Source: a virus (taxonomy: Duplodnaviria > Heunggongvirae > Uroviricota > Caudoviricetes). From it: 4,613 bases of DNA. The DNA lies in IMG/VR virus record IMGVR_UViG_2703718783_000010. One strand, written 5' to 3'. Position numbers and translations under genes: made by a program. The notes below the pieces were generated by a model. It was not told the DNA's origin and made no database searches. It worked only from the letters and a program-made list of their open reading frames with translations. Positions 1 to 4,613 of the stretch are shown here, in pieces (the first letter of the stretch is position 1; the number at the start of each line of letters is the position of its first letter).

Positions 1-879
1 GTCCACACCTTATCCGACGGCCGGTCCTGCACGAACGTCAGCGTCTGCCGGTTCCATACCGGCATACAGCGCATCGCAGAGCAGAAATCACTGAGCACAT
101 CCCACGCCTTGCGCTGTGTGGTCAGGTACGCATTACAGGTGATGCGCGGCTCCGTGCCGCCAAAACCGTCCGGCACTGACTGGTCGCAGTACTGGCCGAT
201 GACATACAGCGCCCATTTATCCACATCCGCCGCACCAAGACGTTTCCCCATGCCGTAGCGCGGGTGGGTCAGCATATCCCACAGACACCAGGCCATGTTG
301 TTGCTGTATGCCGGTTTCAACGTTCCGTCCCAGATACCGCTGTATTGCCGCGTCTGCGGGTTATAATTCGACGGCACCTGCAGAATACGCCCGCGCAGAT
401 GATAATTACGGCTCACCTGCTGGNNNNNNNNNNNNNNNNNNNNNNNNNNNNNNNNNNNNNNNNNCCAGCAGGCGGACTTCCGACGGATTCCTGTCACCCT
501 TTGAGGTGGTTTCCACCAGTGCCTGCACACCGAAGGTAAAGCGCAGACGGTCGATGTTTGCCGACGTGATGGTCCGGGTGATCGGCGTGTCGTATTTCAC
601 TTCCGTACCCAGCACCGTCTCGGATCCGGAGGATTCAAATCCCTCCGGCGGTGTCTGTTCCTGCTCACCTGCCCGGAACACCACCGTGACACCAGAGATG
701 TTGGTATTCCCCTCACTGTCCAGCACCGGCGTACTGTTCAGCAGCACGCTTTTTAACCCATCCACCGGACCTTCAATCGGCCCTTCGCTGATGGCATCGA
801 TCACACTCAGCAACTGCGTGGATTTCAGGTTGTCCTTCGCTTCGCGCGGGGTATGCCCCTTACTGCTACCTTTACCCAT
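1..879 (-). CDS. J: Tail tip / host-specificity protein J (central tail fibre), N-terminal part. Start codon at 879..877; the gene continues past position 1 (3'-partial) and is interrupted by the N-run at 424..464.
   Basis: Minus-strand translation from 879 reads MGKGSSKGHTPREAKDNLKSTQLLSVIDAISEGPIEGPVDGLKSVLLNSTPVLD...NIDRLRFTFGVQALVETTSKGDRNPSEVRLL, which I recognise as the lambda gpJ N-terminus. Below the gap (from 422 downward) the translation resumes as SQQVSRNYHLRGRILQVPSNYNPQTRQYSGIWDGT..., also recognisably gpJ. GGAG lies 8 nt upstream of the ATG (plus 888..891). The frame is 0 mod 3 above the gap and 2 mod 3 below it, so the 41 N do not preserve frame. Confidence 0.93.
424..464. other. 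Run of 41 N: assembly gap or masked segment inside the J coding region
   Basis: Literal n characters in the sequence. The J reading frame is recognisable on both sides but shifted by one base, and roughly 90 residues of lambda-J-like sequence between ...EVRLL and SQQVSR... are unaccounted for. Confidence 0.99.
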
Positions 880-888
880 TCCTCATGC

Positions 889-921
889 TCCATAAACGAC
901 AAAACCGCCCGCAGGCGGTTT
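889..921 (-). terminator. Stem-loop with downstream U-rich tract in the I-J intergenic spacer (weak intrinsic-terminator-like or RNA-stabilising hairpin)
   Basis: On the gene (minus) strand the spacer reads AAACCGCC-TGCG-GGCGGTTTT-GTCGTTTATGGAG. This is a perfect 8-bp stem (plus 902..909 pairing with 914..921) with a 4-nt loop, followed by a T-rich stretch that runs into the J Shine-Dalgarno. Seen directly; function is inferred. Confidence 0.35.
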
Positions 922-939
922 CACATAAAACATTTTGCA

Positions 940-1581
940 TCAGCGACCAATCACCACAACCTGACCACCATCCCCTTCGTCTGCCGTGCTGATCTCCTGA
1001 GAAACCACCCGCGACCCCACACGCATTTCACCGTACAGAACAGGCAAAACATTGCCCTGAGCAACCATGTTATCCAGTGATGAGAAATACGTGTTCTGCT
1101 TACCGTTATCCGTGCTGGTCGTTGTTGCGGTACTCGCTTTCGGTGCCAGCATCTGTGCAACACCGCCAAGCGTCATCGCCGCACCCATTGAAAAGAGAAT
1201 GTCACTGAAAGCGATACTGATCCCCGGCATCCAGATTGCCGTAGCAATCAACGCCGCACCCAGCACCGCCTGAAACACACCGCCACTTTTTGCTCCCGCA
1301 AGACGCGGCACGATGTGGATCACTGCACCATTTGCCAGCGGCTCATTAAGACGGGATGATAATTCGGTTTCGCCTGCATCACGCCCGGCAATCCGCACCT
1401 GATACCAGCCGTCGCTCAGTTTCTGACGAAACGCCGGGAGCTGTGTGGCCAGTGCGCGGATGGCTTCAGCCCCCGTTTTCACACGAAGGTCGATGCGGCG
1501 GCCAAATCGTTGCAAATCCCCGTAAAGGCAGATGCGCGCCATGCCCGGTGACGCCAGAGGGAGTGTGTGCGTCGCTGCCAT
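940..1581 (-). CDS. I: Tail tip assembly protein I, 213 aa: N-terminal ubiquitin-like (beta-grasp) domain ending near a Gly-Gly, then a hydrophobic Gly/Ala-rich segment and a conserved C-terminus
   Basis: Translation MAATHTLPLASPGMARICLYGDLQRFGRRIDLRVKTGAEAIRALATQLPAFRQKLSDGWYQVRIAGRD...TDNGKQNTYFSSLDNMVAQGNVLPVLYGEMRVGSRVVSQEISTADEGDGGQVVVIGR matches lambda gpI at both ends. Stop TGA at 942..940. Its first 103 nt overlap the 3' end of K in another frame, as in lambda. Confidence 0.9.
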   Translation of the reverse strand: MAATHTLPLASPGMARICLYGDLQRFGRRIDLRVKTGAEAIRALATQLPAFRQKLSDGWYQVRIAGRDAGETELSSRLNEPLANGAVIHIVPRLAGAKSGGVFQAVLGAALIATAIWMPGISIAFSDILFSMGAAMTLGGVAQMLAPKASTATTTSTDNGKQNTYFSSLDNMVAQGNVLPVLYGEMRVGSRVVSQEISTADEGDGGQVVVIGR

Positions 1582-2222
1582 TTGTCGGTATACCTCTCTC
1601 GTTTGCTCAGTTGTTCAGGAATATGGTGCAGCAGCTCGCCGTCACCACAGTAAATGGCGGCATGATTCGGCACCGATGAACCAAAACAGCACTGCAGCAC
1701 ATCGCCAGGCTGCGCCTCTGTCAGTGCGACACGGTAAAAACCCGTCGCCTCCATATTGTCAAGATAGAGATTCTGACCGTGACGCCACCAGTCATCCTCC
1801 CGGTGAAAATCCGGCAGTTCAGTCCCCGCCAGATGATAAGCGTCCCGGAACAGCGCGTAACAGTCCGTCACCCCGTGCTCAAAGCGCCGCCCGGTGAGAT
1901 GCGGCACACAGCGGAACTTATGAATCGCCCCCCGGCAGACCAGCCACCACGGCAAATCACTCTGCACCTGCAGCCGCCGGTCAGCCTCACTCAGCCAGGG
2001 CAGACCACTGGGGTGGCTGTGGACCAGCGCCACAATCTCACCCTGCATTTCTGCCTGCAGCCAGTCCTCCGGAGCCATCCGGAAATAATCCTCCGGCTCA
2101 CCGGAAATATTCACGCAGGGAAAATAGCTTTCCCCCTCCGGCGTTCTCACCACGAAGCCGCACGACTCCGCTGGCGCACATCGCCGGGCGTGCGCCAGAA
2201 TCGCTGATTCTGTCTCTGTCAT
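1479..2222 (-). CDS. K: Tail tip assembly protein K, 247 aa: N-terminal JAMM/MPN-type metalloprotease motif plus C-terminal NlpC/P60-type Cys/His peptidase domain
   Basis: Translation MTETESAILAHARRCAPAESCGFVVRTPEGESYFPCVNISGEPEDYFRMAPEDWLQAEMQGEIVALVHSHPSGLPWLSEADRR... matches lambda gpK. HSHPSGLPWLSEAD fits the JAMM consensus HxHx7Sx2D (H68, H70, S78, D81), with candidate upstream Glu residues (E19, E29, E31). NlpC/P60-like candidates are C121 (DCYALF) and H187/H199 (HAAIYCGDGELLHH). The start at 2222..2220 lies 4 nt after the L stop. The track's longer ORF (start 2297) would overlap the L C-terminus by 71 nt and is not preferred. Confidence 0.88.
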   Translation of the reverse strand: MTETESAILAHARRCAPAESCGFVVRTPEGESYFPCVNISGEPEDYFRMAPEDWLQAEMQGEIVALVHSHPSGLPWLSEADRRLQVQSDLPWWLVCRGAIHKFRCVPHLTGRRFEHGVTDCYALFRDAYHLAGTELPDFHREDDWWRHGQNLYLDNMEATGFYRVALTEAQPGDVLQCCFGSSVPNHAAIYCGDGELLHHIPEQLSKRERYTDKWQRRTHSLWRHRAWRASAFTGICNDLAAASTFV

Positions 2223-2226
2223 GGGA

Positions 2227-2925
2227 TTACTGCGAAAGTTTGTTAATGGAAAGGAAGCCGCCAAAGTTGCCGACGTTATTGCGGAACTTACAGCCACTCA
2301 GGCATTTGCTGCATTTATCCTTCGTGATATCGGACGTCGGCTGGTCATATTCATCCGCGACCGCCGGACCGCTATAACCGCACTCATCACCGCGATAGGT
2401 CCAGGTGCAGGTGTTGGCCAGCATGATGCGCCCCGGAAAAACAGCACCATCCGTTTCCGTCGGCGTGGACAACACAAAGGAGGCACTGACCGCGCTCAGT
2501 TCGCTGCACTGCTCGACGCGCCAGCGGCTGATCACCTCCTGCTCCGGATCGGCATCACTGTTTCCGTTGACGAAATTCACCGCATCCAGAAAACGGGCGT
2601 AAACCTTACGCCTGACCACCGTTCCGCCGACCAGACTCTGCAGATCTTCCACCATCCCGGTGACCATACCGTACAGGTTAGAAACCGTCAGCGTGGGGCG
2701 CGTACTGGTGCCTTTGCCATTCAGTTCAAAACCGCTCCCCTGAATGGGATACGCCTGATACTGTCGCCCCTGCCAGGTGACCGGCTCACCTTTTTCGTTC
2801 TGCTCATTACAGAAAAAATAACGTTCTCCACCGACCTCTGTCAGATCGATTTCCCAGAGCACCACGCTGGCCGACTGCTCCGCACGGGTGCATTCATTCA
2901 GTGTTTCCTGTTGGATATCCTGCAT
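2227..2925 (-). CDS. L: Minor tail protein L, 232 aa, with C-terminal cysteine cluster (putative Fe-S site)
   Basis: Translation MQDIQQETLNECTRAEQSASVVLWEIDLTEVGGERYFFCNEQNEKGEPVTWQGRQYQAYPIQGSGFELNGKGTSTRPTLTVSNLYGMV... matches lambda gpL. Start ATG 2925..2923 overlaps the M stop TGA 2927..2925 (ATGA). GGTGG lies 7 nt upstream of the ATG. Stop TAA at 2229..2227. Confidence 0.95.
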   Translation of the reverse strand: MQDIQQETLNECTRAEQSASVVLWEIDLTEVGGERYFFCNEQNEKGEPVTWQGRQYQAYPIQGSGFELNGKGTSTRPTLTVSNLYGMVTGMVEDLQSLVGGTVVRRKVYARFLDAVNFVNGNSDADPEQEVISRWRVEQCSELSAVSASFVLSTPTETDGAVFPGRIMLANTCTWTYRGDECGYSGPAVADEYDQPTSDITKDKCSKCLSGCKFRNNVGNFGGFLSINKLSQ

Positions 2926-3254
2926 CAGTTCACCACCTGTTCAAACTCTGCGCTGAACTCAACACGCAGCATACTGACCCGCGACGACCATTTTGCGCAG
3001 GTCACCTTTATCTGCCGCCACTCATAAGGCGGCGTCCACAGAAAGGCTTTCCAGCCCCCGTGCTCAGCCAGAAACGACTCCAGCGCTGTGGCCTCCCAAC
3101 GGGGAACAGAAAGCGTCACACTGTACGTTTTCAGGTCAGCGTTCAGCCCGGCAGGCGCTCGCTGGGAATAGCCATCACCAAAGCGCACCTTTCTTACGGA
3201 AGGGGCCGAAGCCACATCCATACCGGGTTTCACTTTCCAGCGGAAGGTTTTCAT
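2925..3254 (-). CDS. M: Minor tail protein M, 109 aa
   Basis: Translation MKTFRWKVKPGMDVASAPSVRKVRFGDGYSQRAPAGLNADLKTYSVTLSVPRWEATALESFLAEHGGWKAFLWTPPYEWRQIKVTCAKWSSRVSMLRVEFSAEFEQVVN matches lambda gpM. Start ATG 3254..3252 overlaps the H stop TGA 3253..3251 (ATGA). GGAGG lies 6 nt upstream (plus 3262..3266). Confidence 0.95.
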   Translation of the reverse strand: MKTFRWKVKPGMDVASAPSVRKVRFGDGYSQRAPAGLNADLKTYSVTLSVPRWEATALESFLAEHGGWKAFLWTPPYEWRQIKVTCAKWSSRVSMLRVEFSAEFEQVVN

Positions 3255-4613
3255 CGTCCACCTCCGGAGAACAGACCACCATCGCGCATCTGCCCGGTCA
3301 CAACATCCATTGCCGCCTTACGGGCTACGTCATAAACAGCCTTCAGTGCCTGTGGCCCTATCTGACCGTTCGTGCCGTCGTTGTTAATCACCACATGGTT
3401 ATTCTGCTCAAACGTCCCGGACGCCTGCGACCGGCTGTCTGCCATGCTGCCCGGTGTACCGACATAACCGCCGGTGGCATAGCCGCGCATCAGCCGGTAG
3501 AGATTCCCCACGCCAATCCGGCTGGTTGCCTCCTTCGTGAAGACAAACTCACCACGGTGAACAATCCCCGCTGGCTCATATTTGCCGCCGGTTCCCGTAA
3601 ATCCCCCGGTCGCAAAATGGAATTTCGCCGCAGCGGCCTGAATGGCTGTACCACCTGACGCGGATGCTCCACCACTGGCAGCACCGCCAATGGCGCTGCC
3701 GATACTCCCGACAATCCCCACCATTGCCTGCTTAAGCAGAATTTCTGTCATCATGGACAGCACGGAACGGGTGAAGCTGCGCCAGTTCTGTTCACTGCCG
3801 GTCAGCATCGCCGCCATATTCTGTGCAATACCATCAAAGGTCTGCGTGGCAGCACTTTTAACCTGCGACATACTGTCCGTGGCGCTCTCTTCCCACTCAC
3901 TCCAGCCGGACTTCAGGCCTGCCATCCAGCTCCCGCGAAGCTGGTCTTCAGCCGCCCAGGTCTTTTTCTGCTCTGACATGACGTTATTCAGCGCCAGCGG
4001 ATTATCGCCATACTGTTCCTTCAGACGCTGTTCCGTGGCTTCCCGCGCTGCCTGCCGGTCAGTCAGCCCCCGGCTTTTCGCATCAATGGCGGCCCGTTTT
4101 GCCCGTTGCTGCTGTGCGAATTTATCCGCCTGCTGCGCCAGCGCATTCAGGTGCTCCTGATACGTGACCTTATCGCCAAGTGCAGCCAGCTGGCGCTTGT
4201 ACTCCAGCGTCTCGTCTTTATGCGCCAGCAGGGATTTCTCCTGTGCAGACAGCTGGCGACGTTGCGCCGCCTCCTCCAGTACCGCGAACTGATTCTCCGC
4301 CTTCCACAAATCCCGGCGCTGCTGGCTGATTTTCTCATTCGCTCCGGCATGCTTCTCCAGCGTCCGGAGTTCTGCCTGAAGCGTCAGCAGGGCAGCATGA
4401 GCACTGTCTTCCTGACGATCGCCCGCAGACACCTTCACGCCGGACTGCTTCGGCTTTTTCAGCGTAGCTTCATAATCCTTTTTCGCTGCCGCCATCAGCG
4501 TGTTGTAATCTGCCTGCAGGATTTTCCCGTCTTTCAGTGCCTTATTCAGTTCTTCCTGACGGGAGGTATATTTCTCCAGCGGCGTTTGCAGGCGTTCGTA
4601 AGCCTTCTGCGCC
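3251..4613 (-). CDS. H: Tail tape measure protein H, C-terminal ~453 codons (5'-partial; the gene begins beyond the right edge)
   Basis: The minus-strand frame is open from the window edge (AQKAYERLQTPLEKYTSRQEELNKALKDGKILQADYNTLMAAAKKDYEATLKK...) through to ...MDVVTGQMRDGGLFSGGGR and stop TGA 3253..3251. It has a long Ala/Gln/Lys/Glu-rich helical region, a Gly/Ala/Ser-rich tract and the characteristic gpH C-terminus. The Met at 4495 in the ORF track is internal, not the true start. Confidence 0.95.
   Translation of the reverse strand, partial: AQKAYERLQTPLEKYTSRQEELNKALKDGKILQADYNTLMAAAKKDYEATLKKPKQSGVKVSAGDRQEDSAHAALLTLQAELRTLEKHAGANEKISQQRRDLWKAENQFAVLEEAAQRRQLSAQEKSLLAHKDETLEYKRQLAALGDKVTYQEHLNALAQQADKFAQQQRAKRAAIDAKSRGLTDRQAAREATEQRLKEQYGDNPLALNNVMSEQKKTWAAEDQLRGSWMAGLKSGWSEWEESATDSMSQVKSAATQTFDGIAQNMAAMLTGSEQNWRSFTRSVLSMMTEILLKQAMVGIVGSIGSAIGGAASGGASASGGTAIQAAAAKFHFATGGFTGTGGKYEPAGIVHRGEFVFTKEATSRIGVGNLYRLMRGYATGGYVGTPGSMADSRSQASGTFEQNNHVVINNDGTNGQIGPQALKAVYDVARKAAMDVVTGQMRDGGLFSGGGR

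Follow-up and report, generated by a model that had tools for sequence, protein, structure and literature searches.

The center of gene I in a lambda-like tail gene region is probably an old alternative allele exchanged by recombination among lambdoid prophages

Gene I in the window (the whole 4,613-nt stretch of DNA analyzed here) encodes a tail tip protein with the ends of lambda gpI and a different middle. How did this middle come to differ, and is its exchange limited to one gene? The window carries tail genes on the minus strand in the lambda order, H (C-terminal 454 codons)-M-L-K-I-J (N-terminal part). This strand carries every long open reading frame (ORF) with homologues, and all ORFs in the window are intact. 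When 50,697 phage records were searched by megablast, lambda and its close relatives matched the window with 95% coverage and approximately 95% identity, and the counterpart in the lambda record J02459 is 11741-16613. The N terminus of J is 99% identical to lambda J. A run of Ns also lies inside J (Table 1), and this scaffold gap indicates a scaffolded draft or a metagenome assembly as the source of the window. No RNA family was found when the whole window was scanned against Rfam.

Table 1. Positions of features in the window
Feature	Position	Strand	Basis or remark
Gene I (tail tip assembly/insertion protein)	940..1581	-	213 aa plus stop; ORF list
C-terminal plug and beta-strand domain, residues 157-213	940..1113	-	100% identical to lambda; differences synonymous only
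Divergent tract at the protein level, residues 69-156	1114..1377	-	37 substitutions and a 10-residue deletion relative to lambda
Variable plug-start stretch, residues 149-157	1111..1137	-	Separately reassorting sub-cassette
Hydrophobic helix H2 and invariant GAxMxLGGVAQMLAPK, residues 125-148	1138..1209	-	Invariant columns, hydropathy, AF2
Hydrophobic helix H1 and turn, residues 102-124	1210..1278	-	Alignment, hydropathy, low-confidence AF2; lambda H1/H2 from PMC11101478
Gly100-Gly101, end of ubiquitin-like domain	1279..1284	-	All surrounding codons differ from lambda, peptide kept
Ubiquitin-like (beta-grasp) N-domain, residues 14-97	1291..1542	-	Pfam; fold according to Iyer et al. 2006 (PMC1779556)
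Cassette with 100% nucleotide identity to finished E. coli prophages (e.g., CP027388) and IMG/VR contigs	1061..1395	-	Nucleotide comparison
[quoted passage not shown]
H codons 821-840, tape measure	3293..3352	-	8/20 residues differ from lambda; second swapped patch
N run inside J	424..464		41 N in place of approximately 271 nt of lambda-equivalent sequence; scaffold gap

The neighborhood of gene I is that of the Lambda_tail_I/TAPI family, with K (JAB plus NlpC/P60) upstream and J downstream, and the first 103 nt of the gene are shared with the 3' end of K. Pfam PF06805 (Lambda_tail_I) was found on residues 14 to 97 (E value of 4e-24; 85.3 bits against a cut-off of 23.8), and PDB chains of lambda gpI matched the protein with an E value of 3.5e-105. 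BLASTP aligned it to lambda gpI with 176/223 identities (79% overall) and a single 10-residue gap, which agrees with the lengths of 213 and 223 aa given in the original prediction. Codons 1 to 13 (window 1543-1581) are absent in 70 to 90% of distant homologues, which begin at the position of Met14, and the NCBI products annotated for close relatives have 200 or 191 aa. Met14 may be the true start, and this would shorten the unusual overlap with K. Some homologues (P0001, P0027, and P0042 [335 to 337 aa], P0026, and P0061) have an NlpC/P60 (K-like) or other domain fused to the I domain. These fusions are likely to be K-I read-through or frameshifted annotations across overlapping genes. Another homologue, P0066, has residues 27 to 63 duplicated internally.

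All of the amino acid differences from lambda gpI are confined to residues 69 to 156. Residues 1 to 68 are 100% identical to lambda gpI, and residues 157 to 213 are 100% identical to lambda residues 167 to 223. A pairwise alignment did not show uniform near-identity over the tract between them, which is 58% identical to lambda (37 substitutions in 88 aligned positions) and lacks lambda residues 125 to 134. A nucleotide identity plot against J02459 (60-nt windows) had its dip in the center of I, with 52 to 69% in the tract and 93 to 100% in the flanks, and further patches in K, H, and M. Between approximately window 1155 and 1394, the 60-nt values were as low as 0.52 to 0.62, and they were 0.25 to 0.32 over the gap. 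By the Nei-Gojobori method, codons 69 to 160 had a pS of 0.76 and a pN of 0.27 relative to lambda, compared with a pS of 0.11 for codons 1 to 68 and 0.23 for codons 161 to 213, both with a pN of 0. Synonymous divergence is therefore up sevenfold across 92 codons, which is far beyond chance on a background that is approximately 4% diverged. The pN/pS ratio in the tract is approximately 0.36, which is purifying and not positive selection. Codons 83 to 103 are all unlike those of lambda, but the peptide GAVIHIVPRxAGAKSGGVFQ is still kept. The 5' boundary of the tract is sharp, at codons 67 to 69. The 3' boundary is graded, with pS values of 0.62, 0.52, 0.33, and 0.11 in successive segments, and the drop from 0.33 to 0.11 occurs within residues 157 to 213 towards the 3' end.

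The original prediction had conserved ends and a divergent middle, and it had the Gly-Gly at residues 100 and 101. Both are correct. Its divergent range of residues 69 to 150 (window 1132-1377) has the right 5' end but stops six residues short at the 3' end. It also put the divergence in a Gly/Ala-rich linker that follows the Gly-Gly. However, the first residue of the tract is 32 positions ahead of the Gly-Gly, within the ubiquitin-like Pfam domain, and the last, residue 156, is in the plug region.

What the tract might do can be read from work on lambda and its relatives. An N-terminal ubiquitin-like beta-grasp fold ending in a conserved glycine was assigned to the family by Iyer et al. in 2006, who also predicted that K cuts the protein behind this C-terminal glycine through its JAB peptidase domain; the middle of I was described as a low-complexity linker (PMC1779556). 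In lambda cryo-EM structures, a gpI trimer in the tip lumen plugs the tube (PMC10721106, PMC11101478, PMC12617516) and gpH 818-849 rests on it as a three-helix coiled coil (PMC10721106, PMC12617516). The C-terminal domain of gpI takes part in beta-sheet augmentation with gpJ, and residues 137 to 152, the equivalent of H2, are resolved in the virion (PMC10721106). Lambda H1 and H2 are lost from density after receptor binding, and their entry into the outer membrane has been proposed (PMC11101478).

Mapped from lambda, the swapped tract spans the end of the N-domain, the Gly-Gly, H1, the H1-H2 turn, H2, and the first plug residues. The last third of the ubiquitin-like domain (residues 69 to 97) is inside it. 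The 10-codon deletion follows directly on residue 124 (window 1210/1209), in the H1-H2 turn. Residues 102 to 146 have a mean Kyte-Doolittle hydropathy of 1.54 (1.51 in lambda) and one charged residue, an Asp in the turn. An AF2 model of the window protein, built from 25 close relatives, had H1 at residues 102 to 117 and H2 at residues 125 to 135. This model is poor (pLDDT of 46 and pTM of 0.38); its secondary structure alone was used, and H1 and H2 as structures are taken from lambda cryo-EM alone. The idea that the center of I is an unstructured spacer was rejected. A repeat scan of window 900-1700 found no template-like structure near the tract; its only hits were a direct repeat of 15 nt in two copies and a single weak inverted repeat. 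The copies of the direct repeat (93% identical; window 1173-1187 and 1248-1262) are in the codons of MGAAMT in H2 and LGAALI in H1. They could hint at a GAA-type motif common to H1 and H2, or they could be due to chance.

Close homologues fall into at least five classes by the helix region in the center of I: the window type (...ALIATAIWMPGISIAFSD...), a B type (...AVMAVAIWMPGVGIMASN...), a C type (...LSIVASN...), a WWNP type, and the long lambda type. Hybrids also occur. One has a B-type H1 joined to a lambda-type GGMTG/H2, and another has a lambda-type N-domain end with WWNP helices. After window-type helices, the plug may start with ASTATTTST or with ARTPRTQTT. In three otherwise window-like alleles (L014, L015, and L017), the sequence is AGAKSSGVFQ, with Ser in place of Gly at residue 100. 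G101 is invariant in 25 close relatives.

We extended the comparison to a family alignment of 56 sequences, consisting of 54 mostly distant representatives, the window, and lambda. The column of G101 is glycine in 49/56 of them, and the second Gly alone is well conserved across distant relatives. The spacing from G101 to APK ranges from 37 to 58 residues and is 44 in the window and 54 in lambda. Therefore, the window allele is a typical member of the family, and its 10-residue deletion is within the normal family length range. We also considered the possibility that the center is hypervariable at deep divergence, but this was rejected. The mean frequency of the top residue across the family was 0.39 to 0.49 in the center and 0.51 to 0.53 at the ends, so that conservation of the center is only slightly lower. 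This suggests that the contrast with lambda is due to recombination among close lineages and not to a general lack of constraint.

The 276-nt center was 100% identical in at least eight complete E. coli genomes and at least 99% identical in 47 records. For the segment as it is in lambda, 1,683 E. coli records had at least 99% identity. No phage record in the collection matched the whole central segment at above 83.5% identity, and the cassette was found only in prophages of bacterial genomes and in IMG/VR contigs. Two of the loci with the cassette are the finished chromosome of E. coli 2011C-4251 (L163) and an IMG/VR contig from an independent isolate genome (L003). The 13 mismatches to gene I of the window in these two loci are all outside window 1061-1395. 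L163, L003, and L002 share the cassette at 100% identity but surround it with H, L, K, or J alleles other than those of the window. On an unrelated metagenome scaffold in ENA, a gene with 8 nucleotide differences, all synonymous, has an identical 213-aa product. The pattern of divergence, the donors, and their reassortment are demonstrated by these comparisons and by the identity profiles described below. The allele is already known, and finished E. coli genomes have it under the name tail assembly protein.

Mosaicism had been proposed as a localized exchange. The kind of event was right, because pS is saturated relative to lambda and the cassette is 100% identical to that of other E. coli prophages. 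However, the view that the exchange is confined to I, next to a near-identical K, was not borne out. Identity profiles against ten loci showed that the best match switches between loci along the window. H resembles lambda, L020, and L036, but its last 40 codons resemble L008, L020, L026, L036, and L070 and not lambda. For K, and for I as far as window 1114, the match is L003, a prophage lineage with 98 to 100% identity over approximately window 1114-2250. Where I ends and J begins, the window is closer to lambda again. K has a patch of its own at approximately window 1701-1870, in the NlpC/P60 part, with 72 to 88% identity to lambda and amino acid changes that cluster at approximately K residues 133 to 176. 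This patch is 100% identical in L003 and unlike that in L163, which has the same I center. Therefore, the K patch is separable from the I cassette. M is approximately 87% identical to lambda. In H, a nucleotide patch at approximately window 3254-3400 has 63 to 77% identity to lambda (measured over window 3254-3373), compared with 93 to 100% for the remainder of the gene, and at least four allele types of the H C-terminal helix circulate.

The comparison of K revealed a peculiarity of the lambda record. At approximately 2720-2735 of lambda J02459 (L001), which corresponds to approximately window 2085-2100, one base is missing (GGAGGC-TATTT versus GGAGGCGTATTT or GGAGGATTATTT). Among 138 loci with this site, the missing base is unique to the lambda reference; prophages with 100% lambda gpI are among the loci that have it. 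It breaks the upstream frame, which is why lambda K is annotated as 199 aa. Elsewhere, K has 247 aa and a complete JAB domain that starts 48 residues earlier than in the lambda annotation. The missing base is probably an error or a strain mutation in the 1982 sequence.

Lambdoid phages are textbook examples of mosaic exchange. We put a probability of about 0.85 on the reading that the center of I is an old alternative allele, that these tail tip genes are mosaic by homologous recombination, and that the cassette is likely to be functionally equivalent. The saturated pS in the patch, together with its pN/pS of approximately 0.36, points to an old, selected allele brought in by homologous recombination and not to fast local evolution. 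The source of the window would be a lambda-like E. coli prophage or phage with tail tip genes patched from several alleles, which the many lambdoid prophages of E. coli would swap with one another by homologous recombination. The near-universal 5' end (codons 1 to 68) and 3' end (codons 157 to 213) of gene I would be kept, and its center would be an anciently diverged allele of the "short-A" type, which is common in Shiga-toxin-producing and other E. coli prophages. Either lambda or the window may be the recombinant, with exchange in either direction. By analogy with the lambda structures, H1 and H2 would lie in the lumen of the tail tip below the C terminus of the tape measure and would drop towards or into the outer membrane at the tip opening. 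All family-invariant motifs and the hydrophobicity are kept and only the H1-H2 turn is shortened, so this is most likely a functionally equivalent, interchangeable cassette, with its structural roles taken from lambda. The window allele is ordinary lambdoid mosaicism of a kind already known.

Could the center have diverged in place with no exchange at all, as a low-complexity linker under relaxed constraint or subject to targeted hypermutation? The region is Gly/Ala-rich, has been described as such a linker (PMC1779556), and varies in length across the family. However, pS is saturated inside the patch only, and relaxed mutation of a linker would not be so sharply bounded. Invariant motifs are kept inside the patch, no repeat or template structure is nearby in window 900-1700, and the identical cassette in other genomes with different flanks refutes a reading without exchange. 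We regard divergence in place as wholly implausible. An assembly artefact is somewhat easier to imagine, in which the assembler joined reads of different prophages at the conserved ends of I. The window does contain a scaffold gap, and I is repeated in E. coli (approximately 11,000 copies in 5,426 complete genomes), with a median copy number of 2 per genome and a maximum of 12. Also, no complete genome matched the whole 642-nt gene at above 98.0% identity, and the mismatches cluster towards the 3' end, at window 958-1060. Even so, the 5' junction and the tract from K to the I center are matched in the independent L003, the I portion of this tract is also in the finished chromosome L163, an identical protein is on another scaffold with different synonymous sites, and all ORFs are intact. 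An artefact is therefore very improbable. A chimera could be suspected at most for the 3' junction near window 1000-1060, without consequence for the finding.

A further alternative is that the central alleles are co-adapted to a partner, which could be the H C-terminal helix, the receptor-binding type of J, or the host outer membrane. Diversifying or balancing selection would then keep the allele classes, for example through escape from exclusion systems that block injection. Discrete and deeply diverged classes of the I center do exist side by side in one host species. In addition, H residues 821 to 840 are swapped in the window (8/20 differ from lambda, versus 8/~433 elsewhere in H), and lambda cryo-EM sets gpH 818-849 on the gpI trimer. 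Because of this, we tested coupling to the H C terminus by counting types over 119 loci with both genes, which were sampled by similarity to two queries, so that the counts are not population frequencies. The long (lambda) I center was found with types H3, Hlam, Hlam_PQM, and Hwin in 0, 32, 16, and 16 loci, respectively. The corresponding counts were 5, 6, 3, and 5 for the short-A (window) center and 16, 6, 7, and 2 for the short-B center. An obligate coupling was rejected, because the types reassort: the exact window-type center is paired with all four H types and the long type with three. The only asymmetry is H3, which was found with long I in 0/64 loci and with the short types in 21/50. 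Its absence from long I may be due to linkage across 1.9 kb, to population structure, or to biased sampling of loci; some constraint or population structure exists. Coupling of the I center to the J receptor-binding type was also rejected, because pairing was free over 94 loci with complete J. The I types pair with receptor-domain clusters J1 to J5 with no exclusivity, and I alleles were found with at least four J receptor-domain types as well as the four H types. The purifying pN/pS in the patch also argues against co-adaptation. We consider it unlikely, although less so than an artefact.

Similarly, it is doubtful that the H1-H2 hairpin alleles are kept in E. coli prophages through a functional difference. 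If so, the difference might concern release of the tape measure by the plug, entry of the helices into the outer membrane, or sensitivity to prophage- or host-encoded injection blocks. A swap would then alter the infection phenotype and not be neutral, and the partial linkage of H3 to the I type would be a trace of this. On the favored reading of an exchangeable cassette, the allele matters little by itself, and its modest value is as a map of replaceable gpI segments. Wholesale replacement is tolerated where the ubiquitin-like domain ends, in H1 and the H1-H2 turn, and where the plug begins. The motifs that outlast complete codon turnover are GAVIHIVPRxAGAKSGGVFQ and GAxMxLGGVAQMLAPK. The alleles are also natural chimeras for tests of the proposed Gly-Gly cleavage or of H1/H2 membrane insertion.

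Among known systems, one likeness is to the plug domain of the phage T5 baseplate hub protein pb3. The lambda gpI trimer has the same position as this domain and closes the tube alike, and a hydrophobic segment has been proposed to reach the outer membrane (PMC10721106). However, the pb3 plug is an insertion domain in one large hub protein, without a separate gene or a ubiquitin-like N-domain, and we liken the two by description. Within the Lambda_tail_I family, the window protein has the ubiquitin-like domain with its C-terminal glycine, the Gly-rich hydrophobic middle, and the small C-terminal domain. Its spacing is nearer to the family median than that of lambda, which is the long one. Lambda gpI itself (223 aa; PDB 8IYK, 8IYL, 8K35, 8XCG, and 9E7M) has the same gene position between K and J and shares the Pfam domain, the Gly-Gly, the GAxMxLGGVAQMLAPK motif, and the C-terminal domain. 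The window protein differs in an H1-H2 turn that is shorter by 10 residues and has an Asp (D127), and its plug starts with ASTATTTST where lambda has ARTPRIQTT. A further likeness is to the 213-aa class of E. coli prophages (e.g., WP_152071223.1 of E. coli 2011C-4251, CP027388; IMG/VR L002 to L005), in which window 1061-1395 is 100% identical at the nucleotide level and the whole gene I is 98.0% identical. These alleles differ by 13 nt at the ends of the gene, and their flanking K, H, and J alleles are unlike those of the window. Of the 13 differences, 11 fall within the final 120 nt of the gene, a part in which the window sequence is nearer to lambda.
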